IMG/VR virus record: IMGVR_UViG_3300024262_003767
Origin: a virus
Direction: 5' to 3' (one strand)
Length of the DNA stretch: 64,000 bases
Below are positions 27,353 to 58,097 of this stretch, one piece after another. The first letter of the stretch is position 1, and the number at the start of each line of letters is the position of its first letter. The position numbers and the translations under genes are program-made. Under the pieces are notes generated by a model. The model saw only the letters and a program-made list of their open reading frames with translations, had not been told where the DNA came from and did not search any database.

Positions 27353-28216
27353 TTAATTTAATTCACCTTCCCAAACAATTTTATATTCATATTTACCTGG
27401 TAGTAGTATAATTTCTCTTTGATTTGTATGGTAATATTGTGTTGGTAATTTCTGTACGTCAACTAGTACATCTTTAGGTTGTACTTCCATCATAATAACA
27501 AAAGGTGGTGATGATGGTTGTTCATCCACAAATCTTCTAGCCACTAATATATTTGTAGTCCAAGATGTCGACATATTGAAATCGGATATAACTTTTTCAC
27601 CAACTTTGTATGGTGGGGTTTTTTTTGAAAAATGTTTTATTTGAACTTCTTCAATACCTTTATAAATCTTTAAAGGTTTATCTGGTTTAAAAGGTTTTAA
27701 TTCGTCTATAATATCTTGTGTTAATTTTGATAATAACAAAGAGCCAGAACCTATATATGAATATAACCAATCATCAGTTTTTTCAGATAATTCAACATTT
27801 ATCCTTTCAGGTGTATGTTTATCATATTTAGTAAATCCTCCAATGTAACGAAAAGATATCACATCTCCATTTTTAATTCTTGCTAACCATTCACCTGTTA
27901 TTGAATGTTTATAAAAATAACCAGAATAATCATCAACATCAACTTCTTCATCTTCACTAAATCCAAAAAAATCTACAATTTGTTTATATAGAGGTTTTTT
28001 TGTTTTAATTTGATAGATATATTCACTATTTATATCAGATGCGTCTGCTCTATTTGTTAAATAGATTCTTTTTAAATGATTTAGATTACTAAAATCTATA
28101 TCTTCTAATTTTAATGGTTCATCAGAATATAAATATAAATTTCCATTATATGTTTTTTGATCGTAATCTACTTCATTATAATCTACAAGTTCAAATAATT
28201 TGAATTTAGTTATCAT
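27353..28216 (-). CDS. hypothetical protein
   Basis: 287-aa ORF overlapping the start of the cca gene. Confidence 0.55.
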   Translation of the reverse strand: MITKFKLFELVDYNEVDYDQKTYNGNLYLYSDEPLKLEDIDFSNLNHLKRIYLTNRADASDINSEYIYQIKTKKPLYKQIVDFFGFSEDEEVDVDDYSGYFYKHSITGEWLARIKNGDVISFRYIGGFTKYDKHTPERINVELSEKTDDWLYSYIGSGSLLLSKLTQDIIDELKPFKPDKPLKIYKGIEEVQIKHFSKKTPPYKVGEKVISDFNMSTSWTTNILVARRFVDEQPSSPPFVIMMEVQPKDVLVDVQKLPTQYYHTNQREIILLPGKYEYKIVWEGELN

Positions 28217-29465
28217 TCATAAGATATTCATTTTTGAAACGCACAATCTCTCGTCTTTTCTTTTCTATTTCAATTTCAATTCCTTTGAAACCTTCAGCAG
28301 CTAAATCATTACCATTAACCACAAATCCATCATTACAATAATCAACAAATGGTTTATAGAATTCTTCACCCAAAAACTCATAAATTAAATCATCATCAAT
28401 ATGATATTGATTTTTCATTTTAGCCAAACCGTAAACATTTGAAACGTCAATGTTTTTAAATGATTTCCAATGTAAATCTAATTCCTTCTCAAGTTTGAGC
28501 AAAAATTCAATCTGGTTCACTAACTTGGAACTAAATTTCAATTCACTAATCATATATTTTCTCAATTTACGAATATCATTATCACGAAGTAAATGTGCAA
28601 ATAATATTGCGGAAATAGGTTTTGGTGTAAATCCATCGGGAGATATTTTCAATTTGGGAAACATTTGTTCCCACATATCATATTCAGTTAATAGTCTGAT
28701 ATAATTTTCTAATATTTTGTTTCCGCCTTTTTCTGCGTGTTCAATTACCTTATTCCATTCTTCATGTATTCTTTCTTGTGATACATCTTCTTTGGTACTT
28801 ATACCACGTAGTCTGTTATCACTTTTAATGGCTCTTGATGTCTCAGGTGATATGATACCACCTTTTCTACCTTGGGCTCTTGCAGCGAATCTAAATACTC
28901 TTAAAATTCTTAATCTATCTTCTTTAAATCTCTCAGCAGGATCACCAACAGCACGTATAACATTATTTTCAATATCTTTAACTCCACCAACCAAATCTAC
29001 AATTTCTTTTTTATTTATATCATAGAAAAGAGCATTGATAGTTAAATCTCTACGTTTAACATCATCTTCGATTGTAATATGGTTTCCAATTTCTACTTTA
29101 TCATCATCACCTTTTGTATCTCTACCTCCAGAAATATCTTTTCTAAAAGTTGCTAATTCGTGTCCGAGTGGTTCATCTTCAGTATAAATTCTAAGTACGC
29201 CAAAATTTTTACCTTGTTCATCAGAAACATTCCAACCTTTCAAAATTCTTTTACTTTCTTCTGGTAGAGCATTTGTGACTAAATCAAAATCATGTGGTAT
29301 CTTTTTTTGCAAAAAATCACGAACCGCTCCACCAACAACATAGATATCTTTACCAGCATTATTGAAGGCTCTTGATATTTCTTTAATGTCATAAGGAATA
29401 GGCATCTCAACAGAGATAGTATTTTCAGTTATAAATTCTAAATATTTTTTTAATTTTTCTACCAT
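28206..29465 (-). CDS. cca: tRNA nucleotidyltransferase (CCA-adding enzyme) / poly(A) polymerase family
   Basis: Head-domain motifs YVVGGAVRDFLQKKIPHDFDLVT and RRDLTINALFYD. Confidence 0.85.
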   Translation of the reverse strand: MVEKLKKYLEFITENTISVEMPIPYDIKEISRAFNNAGKDIYVVGGAVRDFLQKKIPHDFDLVTNALPEESKRILKGWNVSDEQGKNFGVLRIYTEDEPLGHELATFRKDISGGRDTKGDDDKVEIGNHITIEDDVKRRDLTINALFYDINKKEIVDLVGGVKDIENNVIRAVGDPAERFKEDRLRILRVFRFAARAQGRKGGIISPETSRAIKSDNRLRGISTKEDVSQERIHEEWNKVIEHAEKGGNKILENYIRLLTEYDMWEQMFPKLKISPDGFTPKPISAILFAHLLRDNDIRKLRKYMISELKFSSKLVNQIEFLLKLEKELDLHWKSFKNIDVSNVYGLAKMKNQYHIDDDLIYEFLGEEFYKPFVDYCNDGFVVNGNDLAAEGFKGIEIEIEKKRREIVRFKNEYLMNDN

Positions 29466-31366: not shown

Positions 31367-31774
31367 TTATTTTTTTTGAAACTTTTTTATACGCTTAATA
31401 GTTTCTTTAAGATCTTCTTCATAATATAATATTAAAAAGTCAACATCCCTCTCATTAATATTATATCTTTTCATTAAATCATCTATCTCTTCTTTTTTAA
31501 ATTTAGATTTGATTTTTGTGGTTTTATTTATTTTAGTTTGCCAATACCAACCAGGTATATTTGTTGTACTACCAAATATTGCGAACCAAATATCTAATGA
31601 TGATGGTTTATTTATATTTTTATTATTAAAAAATTGTGCTTTTTTTATATCCTTATAGGCGAATTTGCGATTGAGAATAAAAAAATTTCTTTCTTTATCA
31701 TCATCAGTAATAAACCTATATTTATCTTTATCTTTGAAGATGATGTTTCCTAAACTTATAAAATCAATTGCCAT
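31367..31774 (-). CDS. hypothetical protein
   Basis: 135-aa ORF. Confidence 0.5.
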   Translation of the reverse strand: MAIDFISLGNIIFKDKDKYRFITDDDKERNFFILNRKFAYKDIKKAQFFNNKNINKPSSLDIWFAIFGSTTNIPGWYWQTKINKTTKIKSKFKKEEIDDLMKRYNINERDVDFLILYYEEDLKETIKRIKKFQKK

Positions 31775-33954
31775 TAATAAAATTGTTTAAATATTTTTGA
31801 GATTTTTTCTTTTGTTATTGGTTTTACAATTTGAAAATCTATATTCTTCTCTACCATATCTGTGGTAGATATTGTAATTATAGTTAACTCTTCATCTATT
31901 TGTTTTAATTTTTCTATGAAATCTAGTATATTAATATTTGATAAACTCATATCTATAAATATTGCATCAATATCACCTAATTTTTCTTCAAGTACATCAA
32001 GTGTTTCCTTTGATGATAGTGTCCATTTAATTTTAACATTCATAGATTTTAACATTATACCTAATAATGAATAGTTTTCAGGTATATCTTCTAATACTAT
32101 CACTTTAATATTAGAAAAATCATACACAATTTTATTAACTTGTTTTGTTTGAATATTTTGAACTTCTTGTAATGGAAGAGTAAAAAAGAATGTGCTTCCT
32201 TCTTTTTGAGTTGAATCTACCCATATATTTCCACCAAGTATATTAACTATACTTTTTGCGATAGATAATCCCAATCCTGTACCTTGGTATTGTTTTTTTG
32301 ATGATGCATCAACTTGCATAAATTTATCAAAAACTATTTCTAATTTATCTTCTGGAATACCAATACCAGTATCTTCAACAAAGAATGTTATAATATTGTC
32401 TTTTATTCTTGTACCAATTCTTATATGTCCACTTTCAGTAAATTTAATTGCATTACTAATCAAATTATATAATACCTGTTTTAATCTAAGAAAATCAGAC
32501 ACTATTATTTCATTATCTTCTCGTTTTTCGAAAGTTAATTTTACCGAATCTATATTCTTTCTAATATTTATATCTATAAAAATTTCTTCTAATTCTTCAA
32601 ATAAATCATTGATTGGGAATCGTTCATATAATAGTTCTAAATTTAATTCACCTGCTTCAATTTTAGCATAATCTAATATGTTATTTAATAATTCTTCTAA
32701 ATGTTTTGCATTAGCATTTATAGTTTTAAGAAATTTTTTATTATTGGTAGTATCAAACTTATCATCTAATAATATATCTGAAAAGCCTATAATCGAATTC
32801 ATTGGCGTTCTTATTTCGTGACTCATATTTGCCAAAAATAGTGACTTTAAAAGATCACTTTTTTCTGCTTCTATTTTTGATTTTTCTAATTCTATTTTAA
32901 TATTTTCTTGTTCTGTAATATCTTTACAATGAATTGCAATATACTCCGTTGAGCCATTATCATTTAAAATGGGATATATGTAATTTTCAAAATATTTATT
33001 ATTTATAACATCAATAAAATGTACTGGTTTGCCTGTAAATATTGCTTCAAGTGTTCTTTTTCTTTTGGGTTCTACACTCTCTTTAGGTAAAATCTGTGAT
33101 ATGTTCACTCCTACTAATTCTTCTCTTGTTTTATTAAAATATTTACAACCTCTATCATTTATTGCTAATAACTCACCTACTTTATTTGTTAAATAAGATG
33201 CACTTAATGTTGAATTTATAATATCTAAGTGTTGTCTCTCCTTTATTTTCATATCAGTAATATCTTGAAATATGGTAACAAAACGATGTGAGTTTTGTTT
33301 ATATGCATCAATTAAAAACCATTTCTGAAAAATATATGAATATTTTTCAAAATGTAAAGTCTTATTATCAGTAAATATTTGAGAATATATCCTTATCCAT
33401 TCACTCGAATCTTTATCTAATATTTCAGTTATATTTTTTCCAATAATTTCTGAATCTAAACCTGTGGTTTCGGTGAACGCTTTATTTATTCTAACAAATT
33501 TATAATCAATAGGTTTGCCACTATTATCAAATATCATTTCATGTAGAGAAAATGCTCGACTCATATTATCAATAATCTTTTCAAGTTCTTCACTTTTAAA
33601 AATATAATCTTTACTTATTTGAGATAAATGTTTTTCATCTTGATATACAACATGTACAAAATTTTCCTCACCTCGATAGATATAATTATATCTCCAACGA
33701 TTAAATTTATCGTCTTTATACTCTTTTAATTCGTGTGTCATACATTCTCCACTATCATACACTTTTAATATTTTATCATAAATACCAAAGTCGATTACTT
33801 TAGAAAAAACATCAACCAATTTTTTATCAATAACATCATATTCAATTCTTTCTACCGTATAAAAATTTTCTGATACTTCGTGAAAATATATATCTTCATC
33901 GATAATTTTATATGTGATAGAAACAAAATCAAAAATTTTTTCAAAATTTTTCAT
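31774..33954 (-). CDS. soluble hybrid sensor histidine kinase (PAS-like repeats + HisKA + HATPase + receiver)
   Basis: H-box SHEIRTPMNSIIGFSDIL; N-box NLISNAIKFT; G1 DTGIGI; G2 GTGLGLSI; C-terminal REC-like VIVLED...IFIDMSL...ITIS..KP; no N-terminal TM segment. Confidence 0.85.
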   Translation of the reverse strand: MKNFEKIFDFVSITYKIIDEDIYFHEVSENFYTVERIEYDVIDKKLVDVFSKVIDFGIYDKILKVYDSGECMTHELKEYKDDKFNRWRYNYIYRGEENFVHVVYQDEKHLSQISKDYIFKSEELEKIIDNMSRAFSLHEMIFDNSGKPIDYKFVRINKAFTETTGLDSEIIGKNITEILDKDSSEWIRIYSQIFTDNKTLHFEKYSYIFQKWFLIDAYKQNSHRFVTIFQDITDMKIKERQHLDIINSTLSASYLTNKVGELLAINDRGCKYFNKTREELVGVNISQILPKESVEPKRKRTLEAIFTGKPVHFIDVINNKYFENYIYPILNDNGSTEYIAIHCKDITEQENIKIELEKSKIEAEKSDLLKSLFLANMSHEIRTPMNSIIGFSDILLDDKFDTTNNKKFLKTINANAKHLEELLNNILDYAKIEAGELNLELLYERFPINDLFEELEEIFIDINIRKNIDSVKLTFEKREDNEIIVSDFLRLKQVLYNLISNAIKFTESGHIRIGTRIKDNIITFFVEDTGIGIPEDKLEIVFDKFMQVDASSKKQYQGTGLGLSIAKSIVNILGGNIWVDSTQKEGSTFFFTLPLQEVQNIQTKQVNKIVYDFSNIKVIVLEDIPENYSLLGIMLKSMNVKIKWTLSSKETLDVLEEKLGDIDAIFIDMSLSNINILDFIEKLKQIDEELTIITISTTDMVEKNIDFQIVKPITKEKISKIFKQFY

Positions 33955-39975: not shown

Positions 39976-41106
39976 TTATTCCTCTTTTTCTTTAACTAAG
40001 TTAAGATATATCTTTCTATCATCTTTGATAACAGAAATAACCTTAACTTTTACTTGATCACCTTTCGTTAATTTGGCATTATTCTTCACAAGGTATGTGG
40101 TTTGTATTAACCCCATAGTTTCATAGTCAAGTGAAATTAATGCTCCAAAATTTTTCACATCAATTACTTTTCCTGATAATATTTTACCTACTTTAATTTT
40201 ATCCCAAAGAGACTCTTTTAAAGATTGTGTTAGTATAATCTTTTGACTTTTTGTGATTTCCTTAACATAAAAATCAATTGCCATACCAGGTAGGATTTGG
40301 TGCCATCTATCTTGCCACTCAGTATTTATGTTCATTTTATGAATCATACCTGTAAGACAATTATTGAATTGAACAAATACTCCAAATGGTGTTGTTCCAG
40401 TAACTTCGCCTGCATAAACGACATCATTTTTTAGTTTTTTGATCTCTTCTGGTATAAGTGTCTTAAGATATTTTCTTCGTGAAACAACATAAACCCCCTT
40501 TTCTTGTTGCAATGTCTCTAACATCACATTTAGAGTTTCACCAATAATTGATTCAGGATTTGCGAGTTTATTAACATCAGCTAATGTATTTGGCATAAAC
40601 GCATCGATAGTTACATTATCCATATAAATATCAAGCATATAGCCTGCTGGTATTAATTCCTTCACCTTAGCAACAAGTGATAATCTTTCTTCATAATAAG
40701 TTTTCAATTTATTATGAACATTCATTTTAATTAATTCTGTAATAGATCCTCTTATTAAGAATGGATCGTCTTGAATTGATGTTATTAGTACATCAATTTG
40801 TGAACCAGGCTCTAACCCTATCACTAATTTTCCTTTTGGTGTGTCAACATAAATGTAGTCTTTATACCCAAAATCAACAGTTATTTCTGTATCATCTATA
40901 GATACTATCACACCTTTGATTATTTCCCCTTCTCTTACTTCTCTTAAATCAAGAAAAGTTTTTTCCATCATACGATAAAGATTTTGATAATCTTCAGTAA
41001 GATTAGATAAATCACCTTTTACTTTGATTATTTCTCTATCATTAGTTAGAAACGGAAAAGGATCAGGAAGTGATCCTACATTTACGCCTTCGATTAATTT
41101 CGACAT
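39976..41106 (-). CDS. S1 RNA-binding-domain repeat protein (ribosomal protein S1-like, ~4 S1 domains)
   Basis: Repeated S1 signatures: GEIIKGVIVSIDDTEITVDFG, GEVTGTTPFGVFVQFNNCLTGMIH, GKILSGKVIDVKNFGALISL. Confidence 0.7.
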   Translation of the reverse strand: MSKLIEGVNVGSLPDPFPFLTNDREIIKVKGDLSNLTEDYQNLYRMMEKTFLDLREVREGEIIKGVIVSIDDTEITVDFGYKDYIYVDTPKGKLVIGLEPGSQIDVLITSIQDDPFLIRGSITELIKMNVHNKLKTYYEERLSLVAKVKELIPAGYMLDIYMDNVTIDAFMPNTLADVNKLANPESIIGETLNVMLETLQQEKGVYVVSRRKYLKTLIPEEIKKLKNDVVYAGEVTGTTPFGVFVQFNNCLTGMIHKMNINTEWQDRWHQILPGMAIDFYVKEITKSQKIILTQSLKESLWDKIKVGKILSGKVIDVKNFGALISLDYETMGLIQTTYLVKNNAKLTKGDQVKVKVISVIKDDRKIYLNLVKEKEE

Positions 41107-46955: not shown

Positions 46956-49472
46956 TTAGGCTTCTAAAAGTGGAGTTTCATCTTTTGGTGGTAATTCTTT
47001 ACTATTCAAATTAACAATAGTAATCTCACCATCTTTACTTCTAAGTGAAACTTTATCACCAATTTTAATTTCACCATTGAGAATAGCATCTGTTAGAGTA
47101 TCTTCAATGTGTCGTTGAATTGCTCTTTTCAATGGTCTTGCACCATATTCAGCATCCCATCCTTCTTCAAATAAGAAGTCTTTAAGTGACTTTGTGATAT
47201 TTACAACATAACCAATATCTTTAAGTCTATCGAGAGTTGTTTTAATTTCAAGGTCAATAATTCTGAAAATGTTGTCTTTTGAAAGAGCGTTGAACATTAT
47301 AAGTTCATCAACTCTATTAAGAAATTCTGGTGCAAATTTCTTTTTCAATTCTTTATCAATAACAGCGTTCTTCTTATCTTGAATGTTTTTGTTGGTGGCA
47401 TTTGTTTGAAATCCCATACCTGTACCAAAATCTTTAAGTTGTCTTGAACCTGTATTCGATGTCATTATGATAATTGCGTTTTTAAAATTAACTCTTCTAC
47501 CATAACTATCAGTAAGAATTCCATCATCAAGAACTTGTAGAAGTATATTAAATACGTCTGGATGCGCTTTTTCCATTTCATCAAGAAGAACAATTGAATA
47601 TGGTTTTCTTCTGATGGCTTCAGTTAATTCACCACCATCATCATAACCAACATATCCTGGAGGCGCTCCAATCAATTTTGAAACTGAATGTTTTTCCATA
47701 TATTCAGACATATCAATTCTAATGAGGTTTTCTTCTGAACCAAAGAGTTCTTTTGCTAGAACCTTTGCTAAGTAAGTTTTACCGACACCTGTAGCACCTA
47801 AGAACATAAATGTTCCGACAGGTTTTTTAGGATCTTTGATACCAATTCTACTACGTTTGATTGAACGAACAATTTTATCAACAGCATCATCTTGTCCAAT
47901 AACAATATTTTTCATTTTAGTTCCAAGATTTCTCAATTTGTTTGATTCATCATCATCAACAGCATCAAGTGGGATTTTGGTCATCATTGAAACAACTTCA
48001 GCAATATCTTCTTTTCCAACGATTTCACGATTTTCGTCCAATTTTTCGTTCCATTCCTCTTTCAATTTTTTCAATTGTTCTGTAAGGTTTCTTTCTTTAT
48101 CTCTCCAAGAAGCAGCTTTTTCAAATTTCTGTTCGTCAACACATTCAGTTTTCTTTTTCTCGGCTTCTGAAATTTTACTTTCAAGAATAGAAATAGCTTT
48201 AGGTTGATTTGAATTTGAATCTACATGAACTTTGGCACCAGCTTCATCCAAAGCGTCAATTGCTTTATCTGGCATAAATCTATCATTCATATATTTATCA
48301 GTCAATTTTACACAAGCTTCAATTGCTTCATCTGTGTACACGACTTTGTGATAATCCTCATATCTAACTTTGAGTTGTTTAAGGATTTCAATAGTTTCTT
48401 CAATGGTAGTAGGTTCTACCACAACTTTTTGAAATCTTCTTTCTAATGCACCATCTTTTTCAATATGTTTTCTATATTCTTCGAGAGTAGTTGCACCAAT
48501 ACATTGGAATGTTCCTCTTGCTAATGCTGGTTTTAACATATTAGATGCATCAAGTGAACCTTGTGCGCTACCAGCACCAATAATTGTATGAATTTCATCA
48601 ATAAAAAGTATAATGTTTGATGTTTCTTCAATTTCTTTGATAATTCCTCTTAAACGAGATTCAAATTCGCCACGATATTTTGTTCCTGCAACAAGGGCAC
48701 CCATATTAAGGGTGAAAATTCTTTTATCTTTAATGTTGTTTGGCACTTTACCATCAACAATTCGTTGTGCTAAACCTTCAACAATTGCAGATTTGCCAAC
48801 TCCAGGCTCACCTATAAGAATAGGATTATTTTTCTTTCTACGTGAAAGAATTTGACTTATTCTTTTAATCTCAATTTTTCTACCAACAACTGGATCGAGA
48901 GAACCTTCTTTTGCTTTTTTGGTAATATCTTCACCAAATTGTTCAATAAGTTTAGGTTTCTTATTTTTATTTGATGCTGTTGTATCACTATGATGCATTT
49001 CTGGATCATCCCAATCTGCACTATTACTTATTCCAGTAACTTTTTCGTGTAATTTTTTAATTATCTCACCTTCATCAATTTTTGAAAACATATCATTTAA
49101 AATATTATTTTTAGTATTTAAGAGTGAAAGTAATACTACATCAGTATCAACATATTTGACATCCATTTCATCAATTATTCCAACACAATTTTCAAGTATG
49201 TCCGTAACTTCTTGTGATAATTGTACTTTATCTTTTCTCTCTGCCAATTGAATATGCTCCATTTGGTTTCTCATTACCAAAGCATCTTGAATAGTTTTTT
49301 TGATTGTTGGAATACGAATATCAATTTCTTGAAGAACTTGATAAGCACGATAATTTTCATCCTCAATTAGAGCCAAAAACAAGTGTTCTGGTTCAATTTC
49401 AGATGATTTATATTGCAACGCAATCGTCTTACTATTCTTAATCACATTATCTACGTCTTTGTTAAAGTTCAT
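46956..49472 (-). CDS. clpB: ClpB/ClpC-family AAA+ chaperone (two nucleotide-binding domains)
   Basis: N-terminal Clp-N repeats; NBD1 GEPGVGKS + LFIDEIH; NBD2 [10 protein letters not shown] + [14 protein letters not shown]; sensor GARPLKR. Confidence 0.9.
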
Positions 49473-49538
49473 AATTAATTTTTTTAGTTATAATTTATAT
49501 ATTTAATTTTCTTTATAGGAGTTTTCCTCTTTTGTTTA

Positions 49539-49760
49539 TTAAAATAAATTGAAAATATCAATGTTTTTTGTTTCTCTCTCAAATATCATACCAAGATAAA
49601 ATAATGGAAAAAAGATAATAGATGCTACCCAAATATATATTCCTCGTACAAACCAAGCTGGTTTGATAAATGGTATCGCCCAATTTTTATATAAGTCCCA
49701 ATCTTCTTTCACAAAATTTAGATAAATATATAACATATATTTTGCTATAAATATTTTCAT
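49539..49760 (-). CDS. small membrane protein
   Basis: 73 aa, two hydrophobic segments. Confidence 0.35.
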   Translation of the reverse strand: MKIFIAKYMLYIYLNFVKEDWDLYKNWAIPFIKPAWFVRGIYIWVASIIFFPLFYLGMIFERETKNIDIFNLF

Positions 49761-49777
49761 TCGTTTTTTATTATTTT

Positions 49778-50080
49778 TTAATCTTTCTCAATCGTGAGTG
49801 TTAATCCTTGTTCTTCAAGTGCGGATTTAAAAGGTTTTAATTTATCTTTTGAACCAGTTTTTAAGATACTCGCACCTTTCATATGAACTGTCCAAGCTGT
49901 GTTTTCAGCTTTTTCTGGACTAAAACTCATAATTGATATCAGACATAAAATTACATGATCAAAAGAATTGACTTCATCATTCCATAAAATCAATTTATAG
50001 ACTTTATCATCCGATGGTTCAATACCCGCTTTACTGAGTATTTCTTCTAATGTTTTTGTTATTTCTTTTGTGTCGCTCAT
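49778..50080 (-). CDS. clpS: ATP-dependent Clp protease adaptor ClpS
   Basis: YKLILWNDEVNSFDHVI...AENTAWTVHMKGAS, typical ClpS core. Confidence 0.85.
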   Translation of the reverse strand: MSDTKEITKTLEEILSKAGIEPSDDKVYKLILWNDEVNSFDHVILCLISIMSFSPEKAENTAWTVHMKGASILKTGSKDKLKPFKSALEEQGLTLTIEKD

Positions 50081-51375
50081 ATTCCTAATTCCTCTTTATA
50101 TAGTTTAACAGTATTAAAGTTTCCAGTATATTTTCCTTCACTATCAGACAACTTTACACAATCTCTCCAAACTTTCATTCCTTCAGGTAAGGCTTCAGAC
50201 ATCTTAATTACCATATTTAAAGGTTTTGCCTTTTTTAAAGTTTCCATAAAATAACCACCATTTGGATTTGGTATCGATTCCCAATTAAATTGGTTATGAT
50301 AATCTTCATCATAGATACCATTTTGTGAAACCAAAACAACATCGTTTGATAGCCAAGTACCTATACCATAGGAAGATAATATTTTATTTCTCACACAATT
50401 TTCAATTGTTTTAATTTTTTCTATACTATTTATAGAGTCAGAAAATACAATTGTTTTTGGAATCATACCATTAGGCATTTTAATACCTTTATTTATGTAA
50501 TGTTTGATAGTTTTTTCTGCGAATTCAACAGGTTCACCAGAATCTTGACGAACACCGTCAAATAATTTTGAATAAAATAAATCAAAACCTTCAAAGAAAA
50601 TATCTGTTGTATATGTATCAGAAAGTGCAATTCCTAATGCTCCTTTATAAGCATCTACCCAACGACCCATTCCTACACGATTAGCCATCATCACACCGTA
50701 TTTAGCAGCGTGAAACATAAACCATTCGTGTGCCTGAGTTCCAATTGCTTTAATACCATATTTACGAGCAAACATCACATTGGATGTACCAACGATTGTT
50801 TTTGGTGCAACTTTCAAAAATTCTTCAATAACTCTACCTTGGATAAATTTTGAAAATCTTCTGCGGGTTCCAAATTCAGATAATGAAATTCCAAGTTCAG
50901 ATAATTGTTTAAATTTTTCATCCCAAATTTCCATTGACTTTTCTAAGTCAACTTCTTCACCTGAGAAAAGGAAGAATAATTCTGATATTAAAGCCATTAA
51001 TTGAACTTCCCAAAATATAGTTTTGTGCCAAAAACCTTCAATTTCTATTTCTAATACACCATTTTTTTGAGTAACTTTAACTTCATTAGGATCATATTGA
51101 TAACTCCTAAGATACATATAATAGGAAATATCAAAGAATGGAAGTTTACTTTTCAAATGTTCTTCAATTTCTTTGGTAAATTTTAAATTTTTGAAATGAG
51201 CAATCTGTTCTTTTAACTCGGTAGCAAAACCTTTTGGAAATTTACGGGTTTTATCTCTGAGTATGAACTTATACTTAACCTTAGCGTTAGGATAGTGTTT
51301 TAGTATGGCAAATTGCATGAAATACTTATAGGCGTCCTGATCATCAAATTCGGTAATTATTGGTTTAAATCTCAT
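50077..51375 (-). CDS. pncB: nicotinate phosphoribosyltransferase
   Basis: Collinear with E. coli PncB: DAYKYFMQ, FWEVQLMALISE, FGTRRRFS, GTSN, GTQAHEW. Confidence 0.9.
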   Translation of the reverse strand: MRFKPIITEFDDQDAYKYFMQFAILKHYPNAKVKYKFILRDKTRKFPKGFATELKEQIAHFKNLKFTKEIEEHLKSKLPFFDISYYMYLRSYQYDPNEVKVTQKNGVLEIEIEGFWHKTIFWEVQLMALISELFFLFSGEEVDLEKSMEIWDEKFKQLSELGISLSEFGTRRRFSKFIQGRVIEEFLKVAPKTIVGTSNVMFARKYGIKAIGTQAHEWFMFHAAKYGVMMANRVGMGRWVDAYKGALGIALSDTYTTDIFFEGFDLFYSKLFDGVRQDSGEPVEFAEKTIKHYINKGIKMPNGMIPKTIVFSDSINSIEKIKTIENCVRNKILSSYGIGTWLSNDVVLVSQNGIYDEDYHNQFNWESIPNPNGGYFMETLKKAKPLNMVIKMSEALPEGMKVWRDCVKLSDSEGKYTGNFNTVKLYKEELGI

Positions 51376-51376
51376 A

Positions 51377-52078
51377 TTATAAAAATTTTCCTATTGTTTC
51401 TGATTCAATTTCAATATCTTTTACTGAATTAATAACAAGTATATTATAATCGATTACTAACATTTCAATATATTTATCTAATTCTTCTTCTGTTCCTAAC
51501 CCTTTTGTTGCGGCAAGATTTAAGATAACTTGAAATCCAGCATTGGACAAATCCTTTAAAGTTTCACCTACACAGTAATTAAGTGCTAATCCACCAACAA
51601 TAATTGTTGTTATATTGTGATAATTATAAAATTCAATCAACCCAGTCGAAATTTTACCTTCTTGATCGTGATAAACACTTGTGTAAGGGTGTAGGTGTGG
51701 ATCGACTCCCTTATTTACAATAAAGTTAAAATCTTCAATTTTACCAAGTTCATCAAGAATTTCCGAACCAAATGTTCCTGATTCACAATGCAAATTCCAA
51801 AACATATCAACATTTTTGTGTCCAACTATAGGTGTGAATTGAGGATTTTCTTCAGTTGCTACCCATAACGCATTTTTTGAGTGCATATCTCTTGATATGG
51901 TTTTAACAATTCCTATTAAATTTTGTTTTGCTAATTCTTTACCAATTAGGTGTCCATCAGGTACAGGTAGTTCATTAGGACAGAGTGGAGTAAATCCCTT
52001 TTGAGGGTCAACGTTGTGACTTGCTGTTCTTTCGCTAATCACTCTAATCTTATTCGTATTTTCAAAACTTATATTCAT
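51377..52078 (-). CDS. pncA: nicotinamidase/pyrazinamidase (isochorismatase family)
   Basis: DPQKGF, K, and catalytic Cys in IIVGGLALNYCVGETL. Confidence 0.85.
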   Translation of the reverse strand: MNISFENTNKIRVISERTASHNVDPQKGFTPLCPNELPVPDGHLIGKELAKQNLIGIVKTISRDMHSKNALWVATEENPQFTPIVGHKNVDMFWNLHCESGTFGSEILDELGKIEDFNFIVNKGVDPHLHPYTSVYHDQEGKISTGLIEFYNYHNITTIIVGGLALNYCVGETLKDLSNAGFQVILNLAATKGLGTEEELDKYIEMLVIDYNILVINSVKDIEIESETIGKFL

Positions 52079-52164
52079 AATATTTTATTTATTTTTATGT
52101 TACAAAAGTAATACTTTTTTTAATAATAAAAAAATTGTATTGTTAAAGAATAACAATACAATTT

Positions 52165-52569
52165 TTATTCGTGAATTCTTTTAAAGTTTTCAATATATTT
52201 AGACATATTTACGGAGCCTATAATATTTTGAGTGTGAATTATACATATTGGTAATTTTTCATTATTATCAATACAGTAATCACACAACCATTTGACACAC
52301 TCCATACCTGTTTTTTCGGTGTATTTTGAGTAATCAACATCATCTTGATTTAATAAATATTGATAATGTTCATCTGCTAAATCGTGATCAAAACTAATCA
52401 TTTGAGGTAAACCATTTAACTCAATACATTTAATAAATTGATCGTAAGACCTAACAATAACCCAATCGAGATTTATATAGTCCATATTTTGTGTATAGTA
52501 ATATGCGTCCTCATAATTTCCATGAGGGGAATATGGAACTCTTTCATCATCTAAAAACAAATTGTACAT
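52165..52569 (-). CDS. hypothetical protein
   Basis: 134-aa ORF; LFLDDER...SFDHDL motif of unknown family. Confidence 0.5.
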   Translation of the reverse strand: MYNLFLDDERVPYSPHGNYEDAYYYTQNMDYINLDWVIVRSYDQFIKCIELNGLPQMISFDHDLADEHYQYLLNQDDVDYSKYTEKTGMECVKWLCDYCIDNNEKLPICIIHTQNIIGSVNMSKYIENFKRIHE

Positions 52570-52974: not shown

Positions 52975-52981
52975 TATATAT

Positions 52982-53016
52982 AAAAAAAACCTCCCAAAAA
53001 ATTGAGAGGTTTTTTA
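52982..53016. terminator. bidirectional terminator downstream of the flotillin gene
   Basis: A-run, aacctc-ccaaaaaattga-gaggtt, T-run. Confidence 0.65.
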
Positions 53017-53033
53017 AGATTAAACATTAAAGT

Positions 53034-54539
53034 TTACTTCTTATCAGGTTTTTCAGTTTTTTTGGTTTTTGCTTTTTCTTCAAGCAATTTAACCATATCT
53101 GCATTACCTTCTAAGAATCCAGGCATATTCTGACCAACCATTTTAAAAGCGTCATCCATTGGAGGAACAGATTTTAAAAGGTTTGTCAACCAATTAGAAG
53201 TAGATGATCCAGCACCTTCACCACCATTACCAGTATCCCAAACTGTGATGTTATCAAATTTAATTTCTTTGATAGCTTCAACTTGAGTTCTAATAATTTC
53301 TGGAAGTTTGTCTGCAATCATCATTTGGACAGCCTTATCAGGATCACCACCCGCTGCACTTACATAAGCGGCAAAACCTTCGGCTTGTTTTGTCATTTGT
53401 TCAAACGTACCACGAGCCTGAGCATCCATCATAAAGAATACTCCATCAGCCTTACCTTTTTCAACTCTACGAATTCTTTCAGCTTCAGCCTCAGCATCTA
53501 CTTCAATTTTTTCTTTTTGAATCTGTGCAGGTACAACAATATCAGCGAATTTTTGAGAACGTTCTCTTTCTGCTCTCGCATCTTCAGCGATTTTCTCAGC
53601 TTTGTATGACTCTTCAAGAGCGTTTGCTGATTTTGTTTTTTGAGCAACGACAATTTTACGATCAGCCTCAGCTTCGGCTTCTCTCCTACCAGCAATAGAA
53701 TTTGCGATTTCAATAGCCGCTTTATTTTCACCATCAACAGCAGTTGAGTTAAAGGCTGCAGTATCAATTCTCATATTCTTATCTGCTTCTTTTTCACCAA
53801 TAACGGCTCTTGAATTAGCAGATGCGACTTTAATTCTTTGCTCTCTTTGAGCCTCAGCGACACCAATATCCCCATCTCTATCTTTCTCAGCAACTGATTT
53901 CTTTGCTTCGTTAATAGCCTGAGCCGCAGCTTCTTTACCAAGAGCCTCAATATAACCAGATTCATCATCAATATCTTTAATATTAACGTTGATAAGTTTC
54001 AAACCAACTTTCTTAAGTTCGTTTTCAACATTATCTTGAATCTTACTCAAGAAAGCGTCACGGTTAGCGTTGATTTCTTCAATAGTAAGAGTTGCGATAA
54101 TCGCCCTCATTTGACCAAAAATAATATCCTGAGCCAACGCTACGATTTGTGTATCTTGAAATCCCAACATTCTTTCAGCGGCATTAATTTTGAATTCATC
54201 TTCTGATGAAATCGCAACGGTGTACGTTGAAGGAACATTTACACGAATATTCTGATTCGAAAGTGCAGATTTCAAATCAACTTCAAAAGACATAGGTTTC
54301 AGAGATAAGAACTTGTATTCCTGAATGATAGGCCAAACAAATACACCACCTCCGTGATATACTCTGGCGCTGGCGTGTCCTGACCGTCCTTGTGAGTCGG
54401 CTTTTCCCTTCACACGCCCATATACAACTAAAAGTTGATCAGAAGGGCACCTTTTATATCTTGCTTTAAAAGTAAAGAAGAATGCGAAAAAGGCAATCGC
54501 TGCTAATCCAATGATAATAGCAATCGAAAATGATACCAT
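53034..54539 (-). CDS. flotillin-like SPFH/band-7 protein (YqiK/FloA-like)
   Basis: N-terminal TM; SPFH core; long Ala/Glu/Lys-rich coiled region (EAEAEADRKIVVAQ...AEAEAERIRRVE). Confidence 0.85.
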   Translation of the reverse strand: MVSFSIAIIIGLAAIAFFAFFFTFKARYKRCPSDQLLVVYGRVKGKADSQGRSGHASARVYHGGGVFVWPIIQEYKFLSLKPMSFEVDLKSALSNQNIRVNVPSTYTVAISSEDEFKINAAERMLGFQDTQIVALAQDIIFGQMRAIIATLTIEEINANRDAFLSKIQDNVENELKKVGLKLINVNIKDIDDESGYIEALGKEAAAQAINEAKKSVAEKDRDGDIGVAEAQREQRIKVASANSRAVIGEKEADKNMRIDTAAFNSTAVDGENKAAIEIANSIAGRREAEAEADRKIVVAQKTKSANALEESYKAEKIAEDARAERERSQKFADIVVPAQIQKEKIEVDAEAEAERIRRVEKGKADGVFFMMDAQARGTFEQMTKQAEGFAAYVSAAGGDPDKAVQMMIADKLPEIIRTQVEAIKEIKFDNITVWDTGNGGEGAGSSTSNWLTNLLKSVPPMDDAFKMVGQNMPGFLEGNADMVKLLEEKAKTKKTEKPDKK

Positions 54540-54567
54540 AATTTTAAAATTTAAATGTTAATAATTA

Positions 54568-55134
54568 TTAATTTGATTTACTTACTTTAACTAAATTATC
54601 TGTGATAAATTCAGTTACAATTACTTGTGAATTTGTATCAATTTTTTCACCAGTTTCTGAAAGAGCGTCAATAGTTCTCAATGCGCCACGAATGGACATT
54701 TGAATTTTTCCTCTCTTATCTTTTCCTGGTATAACCAGATACACGGTTGCAGGTTGTTTCAATACATCATTTTTATCGATGTCATTTGGTGTTGCTTGAA
54801 GTTTTTTGAAACCGAACATAATAGATGCGAAGATGATAGTTAGAACTAAACCAGAACCAACCGAAATTATAATTGATAGCCAAGTATTATAACCTTGTTC
54901 AATGCAAAAAACACCTACCCAACCAAAGAATGCTAAAAAATTAATCAAACTTCTTAGAGTAAATGCTTCACCCATTATACCACTTGCACCATCAACATCA
55001 AAATCACCATCTACGTCACCTATACCATCAGCATCCATATCTGAATCCATTCCGAAAAAGGCAGAACCATTCAAAAATAAAAAAATCGCACCGAATACGA
55101 TTGCGATGATGTAAAATACTGTTAAAAGTGTCAT
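54568..55134 (-). CDS. NfeD/YqiJ-like membrane protein (flotillin partner)
   Basis: Three TM segments followed by a C-terminal OB-like domain (ATVYLVIPGKDKRGKIQMSIRG...QVIVTEF); immediately upstream of the flotillin gene, as in bacterial operons. Confidence 0.7.
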   Translation of the reverse strand: MTLLTVFYIIAIVFGAIFLFLNGSAFFGMDSDMDADGIGDVDGDFDVDGASGIMGEAFTLRSLINFLAFFGWVGVFCIEQGYNTWLSIIISVGSGLVLTIIFASIMFGFKKLQATPNDIDKNDVLKQPATVYLVIPGKDKRGKIQMSIRGALRTIDALSETGEKIDTNSQVIVTEFITDNLVKVSKSN

Positions 55135-55265
55135 TTGTGTTAATTTAGAGATTAAACTTAATTATTTATCTGTATTTCTTAGTAATCGAAAAATAAAAAG
55201 TTTAGAAATTTTAATTAAAATCACTAAACTTTTATACCCCATAAGGGTTTTTGATCACCTTTCAG

Positions 55266-55721
55266 TTATAAATTATATTTATCCATTTGATCCATTTGAT
55301 CTTTCACATTCTTTCTCAAATCATCCAAATTTGTGAGTTGTTGTCTTGGATGACGAATTTTCAGTCTATCAGATATTGCATCCAATATAAAAGGTTCTAT
55401 ATCTTGATATCCTTTATTTTCTACCATATCACTAATATCTTTTGGTAACCAAATTTGATAATATTTAAGTTCACTATCAAAATTTCCTCTTGCTTGCAAT
55501 CCTTGTATATTAGACATTCCTTGACGGTCTTTATTAATTTTTATCATCTTTTCAATACCTAGAACTTTTTTAAATCTACCATCTTTTTCTTCAATAAATT
55601 CAGGTCTTGCCACAAAAGCAAATAAGTCATGTTCTTTACTATTTGGATTCATATCAAATAGTTCTTGAAATACTTTTAAATCTTCTTCACTATATCCTTC
55701 AAAATATTTTAAATGTTCCAT
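55266..55721 (-). CDS. hypothetical protein
   Basis: 151-aa ORF sharing a start/stop nucleotide with the C1 peptidase gene. Confidence 0.5.
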   Translation of the reverse strand: MEHLKYFEGYSEEDLKVFQELFDMNPNSKEHDLFAFVARPEFIEEKDGRFKKVLGIEKMIKINKDRQGMSNIQGLQARGNFDSELKYYQIWLPKDISDMVENKGYQDIEPFILDAISDRLKIRHPRQQLTNLDDLRKNVKDQMDQMDKYNL

Positions 55722-56407
55722 TATATTACGTTTATTTCATTAGCCATACAAACTTCACCATAATCTTTGATAAGTTTGTCCATATCATCAAATGAGATAT
55801 ATGCAAATCCTTTTTTACCCCATTCTCTACCCCAAGAATTTTTAATTCTTATTAGTTTCTTTTTAACATTAACACCATCTAATAAATATGCGTGTCCGCC
55901 CATTTTATTTCCTGTTGGAGTTATAATACCTTCACTATTTGGAAAAAACATATCATAGTACCACCAAGTACCAACAACAACAGGACCTAATGTTAATAAT
56001 GCGTTTACTGTTGTGTCAATATCCCAAGCCCAATTATATCCATTAATATACCCTGCAGATTGTAAAACTTTAGCACCAGCTCTAACACTAGTTCCATCAT
56101 AATCTTCACCAGGCCAACGATCTATCTTTTGTGCTTCATTATATAAATATTCTGTATCATAAGGTGCTACTCCACCTTTTCTACTTGCTTTTTGTGTTAT
56201 TGGACCAGAGGCTAACCAATGTATCCAACTAAATGCAACACAATGAGGTTTATAACCTTGATTTCCCCACCATCCATTTGTCCACCAATATTTATAATCT
56301 ATACCTGGTAATTTTTTAGGTAGCATTGAACTAATTAGGAATTGATGATCCCTATCATCAGGTTTTATAAATCTACCTAATCTTGATTTTAATTGATTTT
56401 CATTCAT
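55721..56407 (-). CDS. papain-like cysteine peptidase (C1 family), no signal peptide
   Basis: Gln/Cys: GNQGYKPHCVAFSW (QG.C.AFS); His: GGHAYLL; Asn: NSWGREWGKKGF. Confidence 0.8.
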   Translation of the reverse strand: MNENQLKSRLGRFIKPDDRDHQFLISSMLPKKLPGIDYKYWWTNGWWGNQGYKPHCVAFSWIHWLASGPITQKASRKGGVAPYDTEYLYNEAQKIDRWPGEDYDGTSVRAGAKVLQSAGYINGYNWAWDIDTTVNALLTLGPVVVGTWWYYDMFFPNSEGIITPTGNKMGGHAYLLDGVNVKKKLIRIKNSWGREWGKKGFAYISFDDMDKLIKDYGEVCMANEINVI

Positions 56408-56431
56408 AGAATGTGATTTTTATTCTATATA

Positions 56432-57583
56432 TTAAAATTCAGAATTATAAATGGATTTGTAAAATTTACCCCAATTAAAATACTTATCCATTGTTTGAAA
56501 TATATCATCAAGAGTTATCTTATGAATAAGGTGTTCCATACTCCAACATTCAGGTTCAATATATTTATTGACATTTGCGTGTCTTAATATGTCGTTCTTT
56601 TTTAGTTTAACTAAAAAATTATCTTTAATAATATCAAATCTATCTTGTGTCAAATAAATTTCTTTATTACTTAATACTTTACCTATTTCTTCTTGCAAAT
56701 GCTCTACATTCTTATTTGAAGTCTCAGTTAAGATTGTAACAACTGAAGATGTATTATTTAATTTTTGGTTAATACATTGAACATAATATGCTAATCCTGA
56801 TTTTTCTCTAATTTCTTGATATAGTGGAGAATTTAATCCAGAACCTAACATACTACAAGTATAACTAATTAATGGAAAATCTTCAGTTGCAACATTTGAA
56901 ATATTTATAATTGATTGTTTATTTTTATATTCGTTAATTAACTCTAACGGCACTAAACCTTCGGGTATAATGATATCATCATTAGTTCTAATTCCAAATG
57001 TTTCCGTTTCGATAAATTTGAATGGGGTATTTATAATACTATCTCTAAAATCAACATTAAAATCAAAATCATTGTTTTTAGATACATTAATTATCATTGT
57101 AGGTTTCTTATAGAAAAGATTTAAATATTCTTTACAATCATCTAAAGTGAAATTTTCTATATCACACCTTAATCCTATTGGGTGATAATAACCAAACATT
57201 TTTCTATTTAAATTTAGAAAATGGTTATTCATCTGTTCATTAAATGAATCTTTATATTCTTCCAAAACAATTTTTTTCTCATTTTCTAATTCTTCTTCTG
57301 TTGGATCATAAGATAGAATCAATTCTAGAAATTCATATTTATATTTATTAACATATTCATCCAATCCATTCATATAAAAAACTACTTCTGTATTAGATGT
57401 ATATGCGTTCCAAGCGACACCATATCTTTGAAAATCATCTTGTAAATGTTCAAATGACTTACAAATTAAATGCTCACAGATATGGGAGGCTCCAAATGTT
57501 CCAACTTTTTCTACCATTGTAGATCCATCAAATATTATATAAAATGAGGATAATTCTATTTCACTTTTAATGTTTTTTATCAT
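56432..57583 (-). CDS. M16 (insulinase/pitrilysin)-like zinc peptidase
   Basis: Inverted zinc motif HxxEH: HICEHL; 383 aa. Confidence 0.55.
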   Translation of the reverse strand: MIKNIKSEIELSSFYIIFDGSTMVEKVGTFGASHICEHLICKSFEHLQDDFQRYGVAWNAYTSNTEVVFYMNGLDEYVNKYKYEFLELILSYDPTEEELENEKKIVLEEYKDSFNEQMNNHFLNLNRKMFGYYHPIGLRCDIENFTLDDCKEYLNLFYKKPTMIINVSKNNDFDFNVDFRDSIINTPFKFIETETFGIRTNDDIIIPEGLVPLELINEYKNKQSIINISNVATEDFPLISYTCSMLGSGLNSPLYQEIREKSGLAYYVQCINQKLNNTSSVVTILTETSNKNVEHLQEEIGKVLSNKEIYLTQDRFDIIKDNFLVKLKKNDILRHANVNKYIEPECWSMEHLIHKITLDDIFQTMDKYFNWGKFYKSIYNSEF

Positions 57584-57879
57584 AATATTCTTTTTAATTT
57601 TATTTTACGAATTCTTTTTTCTATTTCTCTTAATTGTTTATCTGATATTTCACCTTTATCTATCTTACTTAAATATACATCAAATAGTGCTTCATCAGGT
57701 TCTTTACCTGTATATCCTAAAACACAATGTTTAAAGGCTTCTAATATTTCTTCACCATTTTCAACCTTTTTAATGTCACCATGATGATTATAATACACAT
57801 CCCCATTATTTCTAAATTCGAGTAATGGTTTATCTATTCCATTAATTGTGAATACTACTCCTGGAGTTAATCCTATCAC
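57580..57879 (-). CDS. hypothetical protein
   Basis: 99 aa, ATGA overlap. Confidence 0.45.
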   Translation of the reverse strand: MIGLTPGVVFTINGIDKPLLEFRNNGDVYYNHHGDIKKVENGEEILEAFKHCVLGYTGKEPDEALFDVYLSKIDKGEISDKQLREIEKRIRKIKLKRIL

Positions 57880-58097
57880 ATACCTAATATTTTTTTATAA
57901 TATTCTGATTGAATATTTTTTAATGAGCCATATAATTTATCTAAAAAATCTATTCTATCTTCAAGATTATCTATTTCTTCATCTGAACCATCTGTTATTT
58001 TTTCATCAAGTTCATCTCTAGTCTTTTTTACTTCTTCCATTAAATCTTCTAAACTAATATAAGGTTTCCCATCATCCCCACGCATTGTTTTTAACAT
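57876..58097 (-). CDS. small acidic hypothetical protein
   Basis: 73 aa. Confidence 0.45.
   Translation of the reverse strand: MLKTMRGDDGKPYISLEDLMEEVKKTRDELDEKITDGSDEEIDNLEDRIDFLDKLYGSLKNIQSEYYKKILGM

Follow-up and report, generated by a model that had tools for sequence, protein, structure and literature searches.

A facultative NfeD-like/flotillin cassette and two cytoplasmic peptidases lie side by side on a huge-phage-like genome, probably as separately inherited units

When a viral genome places two peptidase genes beside a flotillin and its membrane partner, do these genes encode one membrane-associated proteolytic system, or are they neighbors that happen to share a strand? The question is raised by a 64,000-nucleotide stretch of IMG/VR virus record IMGVR_UViG_3300024262_003767 (the window), in which five minus-strand genes between positions 53034 and 57583 encode, in order of transcription, an M16 metallopeptidase, a papain-family C1 cysteine peptidase, a 151-amino-acid protein of unknown kind (u151), an NfeD-like membrane protein, and a flotillin. 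An initial annotation read these genes as a five-gene operon in which the flotillin/NfeD pair is linked to two proteases. All five open reading frames (ORFs) are where that annotation placed them, but the link it drew between them does not hold up. The five genes are probably juxtaposed, separately inherited units in a long co-directional array of non-structural genes, with a distinct role proposed below for each unit.

The evidence that carries this reading is the fate of the genes among close relatives, which were found through homologs of u151, the NfeD-like protein, and flotillin, and whose contigs were then examined. The full block is present in the window, L016, and L018 to L020, and to this extent the conservation that might be expected of a five-gene block is seen; in other relatives it is broken. 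L110 has M16, C1, NfeD, and flotillin, with u151 replaced by a Mom-like gene. L021 has M16, C1, and u151, the last followed directly by cREC, and both NfeD and flotillin are absent. L011 also has M16, C1, and u151, with NfeD deleted and flotillin reduced to a pseudogene: here colinearity with the window ends at the NfeD start codon, a 1069-bp deletion corresponding to window positions 55131-54063 has removed all of NfeD together with about 159 flotillin codons, and the flotillin remnant also carries a 725-bp insertion and, further on, frameshifts. In L109, M16, C1, and u151 are absent, and NfeD and flotillin (78% identical to that of the window) are present in a different neighborhood, with methyltransferase and SmpB genes upstream. 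The NfeD-flotillin cassette is facultative in this clade, where some close relatives keep it and others have lost it, retain only a decayed copy, or have it at another site, and judging from these gene contents M16 and C1 are inherited apart from it.

Two features of these contigs are recorded for their own sake. The insertion in L011 (L011:1797-2522), which may be a mobile-element remnant, holds two short ORFs of 64 and 89 amino acids; judged by eye, the second looks similar to a tyrosine recombinase N-terminal domain. The SmpB homolog of L109 (L109:3787-4227), a partner of tmRNA, lies a few genes upstream of the cassette on a contig that is phage-like.

The same separation is seen in more distant viruses. 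A profile scan of IMG/VR returned 161 flotillin-encoding contigs, 80 of which were kept for analysis of the 8-kb neighborhood of the gene. The shortest of these 80 is 8 kb and the longest 597 kb, a further one measures 425 kb, and roughly 60 are related to the crAss-like phage csAssE-Sib. An NfeD-like gene stands directly upstream of flotillin in 76 of the 80, and in 3 of the remaining 4 flotillin lies at the contig edge, where the upstream gene is cut off; M16, C1, or u151 occurs within 8 kb of flotillin in none of them (0/80). The complete genomes of csAssE-Sib (OR575929) and Vibrio phage KIT04 (LC487410) likewise contain flotillin and lack these peptidases. As in the window, the other phage flotillins (csAssE-Sib, KIT04, and IMG/VR contigs of 74 to 597 kb) have upstream a gene for a small membrane protein belonging to the partner family, but they are only 33% to 54% identical to the window flotillin and lie in different neighborhoods (replication genes in csAssE) with no peptidases nearby. 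The gene upstream of flotillin in KIT04 encodes only 82 amino acids and is at most a putative member of that family.

The junctions between the genes also suggest a division. The initial annotation described them as overlapping or short, which is accurate for three of the four: M16 and C1 are 24 nt apart (+24), C1 and u151 overlap by 1 nt (-1), and 28 nt separate NfeD from flotillin (+28). The fourth, between u151 and NfeD, is a gap of 131 nt holding an AU-rich hairpin followed by a U-run (55189..55233, minus strand; RNA fold z -3.3), a candidate terminator or attenuator of the peptidase unit. This hairpin and U-run follow u151 in 4 of the 5 u151-bearing lineages (window, L011, L018, and L021), with compensatory changes; they are retained in L021, which has no cassette, and stand directly after C1 in L110. 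A second hairpin of 14 bp, GC-containing, followed by a T-run and resembling an intrinsic terminator, lies 19 nt past the flotillin stop codon (52976..53015, minus strand; RNA fold -19 kcal/mol, z -6.4), and is kept in L016 and in L018, the latter with a compensatory change. With a hairpin after u151 and a conserved terminator after flotillin, the simplest reading of the sequence suggests two transcription units, one running from the small upstream ORFs u73 and u99 through M16 and C1 to u151, and the other consisting of NfeD and flotillin.

At its other end the block has no natural boundary. The start of M16 overlaps the end of u99 (57580..57879, minus strand) by 4 nt, and the end of u73 (57876..58097, minus strand) in turn overlaps u99 by 4 nt, so that the 5' limit of a five-gene block is arbitrary; M16 is translationally coupled to u99 and u73, so a unit does not begin with it. 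Both small ORFs are kept in L016, and u73 also in L110; u73 has no family above threshold in Pfam. All annotated genes from 62848 to 46956 share the minus strand, and the co-oriented array, which extends at least this far, thus far exceeds five genes.

The identity of the cassette genes is supported to different degrees. The gene at 53034-54539 (minus strand) encodes 501 amino acids of the FloT/YqiK type, with an N-terminal anchor, an SPFH domain, and a long EA-rich coiled coil. It matches Band_7 (PF01145; 2.2e-30) over residues 33-220 and the FloT model NF058507 (8.8e-51) over residues 9-461, although its 173 bits against an equivalog cut-off of 700 make it a member of the family and not a FloT equivalog. 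Its residues 61-459 align with human flotillin-1 (E 4e-30), its hydrophobic N-terminal segment (residues 1-27, KD19 maximum 2.68) forms the membrane anchor, and its EA-rich C-terminal coiled-coil region aligns with bona fide flotillins. The protein is a genuine flotillin, a full-length conservative copy of the cellular form with no added domain.

The upstream gene (54568-55134, minus strand) encodes a membrane protein of 188 amino acids that carries the NfeD label by fold and not by sequence models, with no match in Pfam (E <= 0.01), NCBIfam (E <= 0.1), PHROG, or PDB sequences. AlphaFold2 (AF2) modeling at medium confidence (predicted local distance difference test, pLDDT, 69.5) gave three transmembrane helices (residues 3-26, 53-79, and 84-113), which match three hydrophobic segments in the sequence, an acidic loop, and a C-terminal OB-like barrel of five strands (residues 128-186). 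The top three PDB matches of this model in Foldseek are all NfeD proteins, namely YbbJ (8z5g), PH1510-C (3wwv, TMt 0.73), and YuaF (2k14, TMt 0.61). The protein is thus best described as NfeD-like by predicted fold only, a label that its sequence cannot confirm. It lacks a ClpP-class protease domain and corresponds to the short form of NfeD, and like short-form NfeD genes its gene lies directly upstream of an SPFH gene with which it is co-inherited.

NfeD-flotillin operons are well known in bacteria, where their physiological role is still debated. The flotillin operons yuaF-floT of B. subtilis and yqiJ-yqiK of E. coli have an upstream NfeD-family partner. Bacterial NfeD partners have transmembrane helices and a C-terminal barrel, as does the 188-amino-acid protein, and a Bacteroidota pair (L023/L024) shows the same order and spacing, with a membrane partner of about 190 amino acids upstream of a flotillin of about 500. 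The window cassette differs from these operons in lying on a huge-phage-like genome, in being recoded to about 27% GC, and in having a partner without a Pfam NfeD match. Two solved assemblies offer structural counterparts. YbbJ of the QmcA-YbbJ cage (8z5g) is the best fold match of the 188-amino-acid protein, but its whole-chain TM-score is low (0.28-0.35), and flotillin-1 of the human flotillin-1/2 dome (9bq2, 9l3g) is the best sequence match of the window flotillin. The cassette itself is of the ordinary NfeD-flotillin kind; what appears to be new is its recurrence on phage genomes.

Where might such a cassette come from? The window flotillin has about 10 relatives within the clade at 71% to 100% identity, and the next relatives drop to 50% to 60%. 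Of the latter, most that have a named source belong to Bacteroidota (Bacteroidales, Proteiniphilum, Schleiferiaceae, and Roseivirga). In Proteiniphilum and Roseivirga, flotillin is preceded at 6-10 nt by a gene for 189 or 193 amino acids that, like its window counterpart, has no Pfam match, and whose product is 31-33% identical to the 188-amino-acid protein over its full length (E 2e-22 and 3e-24). Because the same partner gene precedes flotillin in these bacteria, the phage carries a whole cellular two-gene operon, which was likely captured from a Bacteroidota-like host, the direction of transfer being our inference. GC content at third codon positions (GC3) is 0.25 for flotillin and 0.21 for NfeD, within the phage's range and only slightly above the 0.13-0.16 of the peptidases, so that the acquisition is probably old and the genes ameliorated. 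A rough neighbor-joining tree of flotillins places at least 5 viral groups among Bacteroidota sequences, but it is star-like and too poorly resolved for captures to be counted.

The two peptidases are of a different nature. M16 (56432-57583, minus strand) is predicted to be a soluble M16B-type zinc metallopeptidase of 383 amino acids. It matches Peptidase_M16 (PF00675, 1.8e-8) and M16_C (PF05193, 5.5e-11), both over the Pfam cut-off, and so bears the two-domain alpha/beta signature of the family. The inverted zinc motif HxxEH and the distal glutamate E109 are present, and residues H34xxE37H38, E102, and E109 are invariant across 7 phage homologs. The nearest solved structures are M16B enzymes (5euf from H. 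pylori and 3hdi from B. halodurans), in alignments that span the HxxEH and ExxxxxxE motifs, and the M16 assignment of the initial annotation is borne out by family models, structures, and invariant residues alike. These enzymes and the M16 genes of huge phages have the two-domain signature, HxxEH, and distal glutamate in common with the window protein, which is shorter than typical M16B enzymes. Hydropathy revealed no transmembrane or hydrophobic segment in M16, and no gene for an M16 partner subunit adjoins it. Its relatives in the huge phages LR756501-4 and LR745206, 41-47% identical, are stand-alone genes, and searching IMG/VR with M16 as the only query protein yielded no confirmed locus.

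C1 (55721-56407, minus strand) encodes 228 amino acids and consists of the mature domain only, beginning about 35 residues ahead of the mature-domain motif. It matches Pfam Peptidase_C1 (8.9e-8) and phrog_16701 (2.9e-61). Residues Q50, C56, H172, and N190 align with papain Q19, C25, H159, and N175 and are kept in five phage homologs including those of XacN1, RAS14, and Wakanda; the catalytic histidine and asparagine also align in a phmmer match to 3ois. The active site was therefore not misassigned. The protein has no N-terminal propeptide, signal peptide, transmembrane segment, or hydrophobic N-terminus, and its sequence points to a family member in a pro-region-less, cytoplasmic form, without the propeptide and secretion signal typical of C1A peptidases. 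The other C1 peptidases of phrog_16701 (XacN1 ORF382, Stenotrophomonas phages RAS14 and CM1, and Streptomyces, Gordonia, and Mycobacterium phages) are 30-43% identical to it over the full length, have the same four catalytic residues, and likewise lack a propeptide. In XacN1, RAS14, and the actinophages they stand alone in unrelated contexts, whereas in the window clade C1 is coupled to u151. Nothing ties either M16 or C1 to the membrane.

In L018 (L018:1658-2611), and also in L019 and L020, the C1 gene is interrupted by an in-frame insertion of about 320 amino acids (WPGE|CVDIET...FITGN|SYDGTS) at a point corresponding to window residues E101/D102, about position 56105. With a cysteine as first residue, a serine at +1, and LAGLIDADG-like motifs, its sequence looks like an intein with a homing endonuclease; we know of no reported case of an intein in a papain-family peptidase.

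From these gene identities, catalytic residues, topologies, synteny, and presence/absence patterns we propose unit boundaries, an assembly, and physiological roles as follows. The first unit (u73-u99-M16-C1-u151), ending at the hairpin and U-run, would supply the cell with M16 and C1, both soluble, cytoplasmic, and intact in their catalytic residues. Members of M16B are oligopeptidases of clamshell shape, and such an enzyme together with the pro-region-less C1 could degrade or process cytoplasmic peptides and proteins. The phage also encodes a ClpS adaptor and a ClpC-like unfoldase, whose genes lie 3-6 kb downstream, and the two peptidases may act after these in the same pathway. The second unit would be the facultative cassette related to Bacteroidota operons, with a strong terminator of its own. 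By analogy, the three-helix NfeD-like protein and the N-terminally anchored flotillin could together build, on the cytoplasmic side of the host's inner membrane, an SPFH cage or microdomain, for which the models are human flotillin, whose dome structures are available (PMC11260169, PMC13000311), and the SPFH-NfeD cage QmcA-YbbJ (PDB 8z5g; Tan et al. 2024, as cited in PMC13086221). Such an assembly might organize and stabilize membrane proteins and preserve membrane integrity during a long infection. In S. aureus, FloA-NfeD is an ATP-independent holdase, and stressed cells stay viable (PMC11222466); because this holdase keeps stressed cells viable, a membrane-maintenance role would be the most economical one for a facultative phage copy.

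Several points weigh against the separation of the two units. L011 and L021 are each a single metagenomic contig, where an assembly artifact is possible. The cassette directly follows the peptidase unit in four clade lineages, and a local functional benefit of this arrangement is possible. The hairpin between u151 and NfeD is AU-rich and missing in L016, and its sequence leaves transcriptional read-through from u151 into NfeD possible. The NfeD call comes from a model of medium confidence, with TM-scores of 0.6-0.7 that concern the barrel only, while the Pfam NfeD family gave no match. Finally, a structural hallmark gene was not identified in the window, and the case for a phage origin is built on similarity to huge-phage records and on the record's place in IMG/VR.

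Among the other explanations, the one that survives best is that the cassette serves conflict between phages or between phage and host, by superinfection exclusion or as a shield against abortive-infection effectors that depolarize the membrane. Conflict genes typically show just such a patchy, facultative distribution within a clade and recur across several phage lineages, and the product lies in the membrane. We nevertheless regard this role as unlikely: the PADLOC defense models gave no match for the 8 proteins tested, the flotillin is a full-length, conservative copy of the cellular protein that has gained no domain, and no precedent was found in the literature.

It is less probable again that M16 and C1 are morphogenetic or lytic enzymes that process proheads or virions or cleave cell-wall peptides, in place of acting as cytoplasmic degraders. 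The authors of the XacN1 genome list the homologous C1 among potential lytic enzymes, but the same ORF382 is not among the enzymes packed into the virion (PMC5852040). A Gordonia phage homolog is annotated as a putative lysin, the Wakanda homolog adjoins terminase, and the intein in the C1 gene of L018 to L020 suggests a conserved, important gene. Against this, no signal peptide, transmembrane segment, or cell-wall-binding domain was found in these peptidases, their neighbors are non-structural (SbcCD, NAD salvage, and Clp genes), and M16B enzymes are known from the family at large as oligopeptidases.

The explanation implied by the initial annotation, in which a flotillin/NfeD cage recruits or regulates M16 and C1 at the membrane as one integrated machine, is a poor fit to the distribution. 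It would place the locus beside HflK/C-FtsH, prohibitin-m-AAA, and stomatin-STOPP. SPFH proteins are known partners of proteases (PMC13086221, PMC12330512), and in the window, L016, L018 to L020, and L110 the genes are adjacent and co-oriented. Moreover, in HflK/C-FtsH and in stomatin PH1511-STOPP PH1510 an SPFH gene stands beside proteolytic enzymes, as in the window, and the PH1510-C barrel is a fold match of the NfeD-like barrel. The proteases of those systems, however, are membrane-anchored, are either NfeD-fused or caged, and belong to the AAA+ or ClpP class, whereas the window NfeD is short and protease-less, and M16 and C1 are soluble, of an unrelated class, and separately inherited. 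A membrane-anchored protease partner and co-inheritance of SPFH and protease genes, by which an SPFH-protease supercomplex is recognized, are both wanting here. The cassette is lost in L021 and decayed in L011 while the peptidases remain intact, L109 and the other viral contigs (80 of 80) have it with no peptidases beside it, M16 and C1 each occur alone in other phages, and a hairpin and U-run stand between the units. An integrated machine is therefore very improbable, and the protease-flotillin combination, being an accident of synteny, should not be propagated as a new system.

That the block is host DNA, by contamination or as a bacterial island, can be dismissed as exceedingly improbable. 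In its favor, flotillin and NfeD have close Bacteroidota relatives, relative L016 lies in an NCBI metagenome-assembled genome, and the window has no identified structural gene. Against it, at least 6 contigs share the syntenic array, IMG/VR viral contigs among them; huge-phage genes match M16 at 46% identity and the ClpC-like protein at 60%; named cellular flotillins reach no more than 50-60% identity; GC3 has ameliorated to the background of 27% GC; and a homing endonuclease, an intein, and many ORFans are present.

With the five genes read as juxtaposed units, the cassette becomes the part of wider consequence. Phage-borne NfeD-flotillin amounts to a natural "gain-of-function" experiment, with plus and minus variants within one clade, and counted by flotillin at least 161 viral contigs carry the module, among them crAss-like gut phages and phages of 400-600 kb. 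Finding its benefit to the phage would inform both SPFH biology and the handling of host membranes by large phages. Searches of the accessible literature found no description of a phage, huge-phage, or crAss-like flotillin, the sole relevant exception being an SPFH lipoprotein of a Schitoviridae phage that was noted as unexplained; a survey of jumbo phages (PMC7824862) treats ClpS and ClpP and does not discuss SPFH proteins. A bolder view, which we offer as speculative and consider rather improbable, is that large Bacteroidota phages, both huge and crAss-like, repeatedly capture NfeD-flotillin from the host to build SPFH cages of their own on its membrane, and that here the cassette has been joined with ClpS, the ClpC-like protein, M16, and C1 into a hub, under phage control, for membrane and protein quality control, which over a long infection would keep the infected cell working or withstand defenses aimed at the membrane.

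The wider window fits a phage setting. The block recurs in related contigs, which upholds the phage context assumed at the outset and means that it is neither unique to this genome nor host contamination; phage origin is well supported but indirect, because the window has no structural hallmark gene. Directly downstream of flotillin, the minus-strand array continues (46956-52569) with cREC_REC, a nicotinamidase (PncA), NAPRT, ClpS, and an 838-amino-acid ClpC/ClpA-like unfoldase, which is the protein 60% identical to a gene in the "uncultured phage" genomes LR756501-4/LR745206 (630-735 kb); SbcCD is also among the neighbors. The NAD-salvage and Clp-adaptor set is kept in all clade relatives, and its ClpS-Clp end was observed in L012, L016, L018, L019, and L021. 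ClpP was not found in the window with an E. coli ClpP query.

Elsewhere the window is rich in ORFans and auxiliary genes, including a hybrid PAS/histidine kinase/receiver protein, a CCA-adding (PolyA_pol) enzyme, an S1-domain protein, and a homing endonuclease (among 31774-33954, 28206-29465, 39976-41106, and 1422-2321), which together are typical auxiliary content of huge phages. The window has a GC content of 27% and no tRNA genes, and a near-identity DNA search of GenBank phages with the block gave no match; the genome is AT-rich and huge-phage-like, and its host is probably a member of Bacteroidota. None of the 16 genes between 46956 and 62848 has a Shine-Dalgarno-like motif in the 25 nt upstream, and their leaders are A/T-rich, a pattern that accords with translation initiation of the Bacteroidota style and with the kinship of the flotillin cassette to Bacteroidota genes. 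A scan for sigma-70 promoters gave no signal over shuffles (48 vs. 42.5), and sigma-70-type promoters are probably not used by the host. The candidate AGTTTAATCTCTAAA, upstream of NfeD, was considered as a repeated phage promoter motif and rejected, as 16 matches against 13 expected represent no enrichment.

The remaining member of the block, u151 (55266..55721, minus strand; its start and the C1 stop share 1 nt), is soluble by hydropathy and has no family match in Pfam, PHROG, or PADLOC and no fold match, as its original description as a protein of unknown kind had it. We considered whether it could be a cognate inhibitor or chaperone of C1 in the manner of staphostatin or chagasin, and rejected this as unsupported: none of 10 larger u151-domain proteins scanned contains a C1 domain, a 36%-identical u151 homolog has no C1 neighbor, and a Mom-like gene stands in its place in L110. 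The latter (L110:8400-9284) encodes a 294-amino-acid protein of the Mom family (PF25680), and on the same contig SbcD and SbcC are fused in one ORF of 1240 amino acids (L110:2136-5858). The core of u151 (residues 28-119; motif ...IE+M.+I...MRA+...Y.IW.PK) defines an unnamed domain family of about 77 representative clusters, which occurs alone or at the C-terminus of larger proteins (P0159, P0188, and P0164-P0169), once after an N6/N4 DNA methylase, once after MORN repeats, and otherwise with unknown domains.

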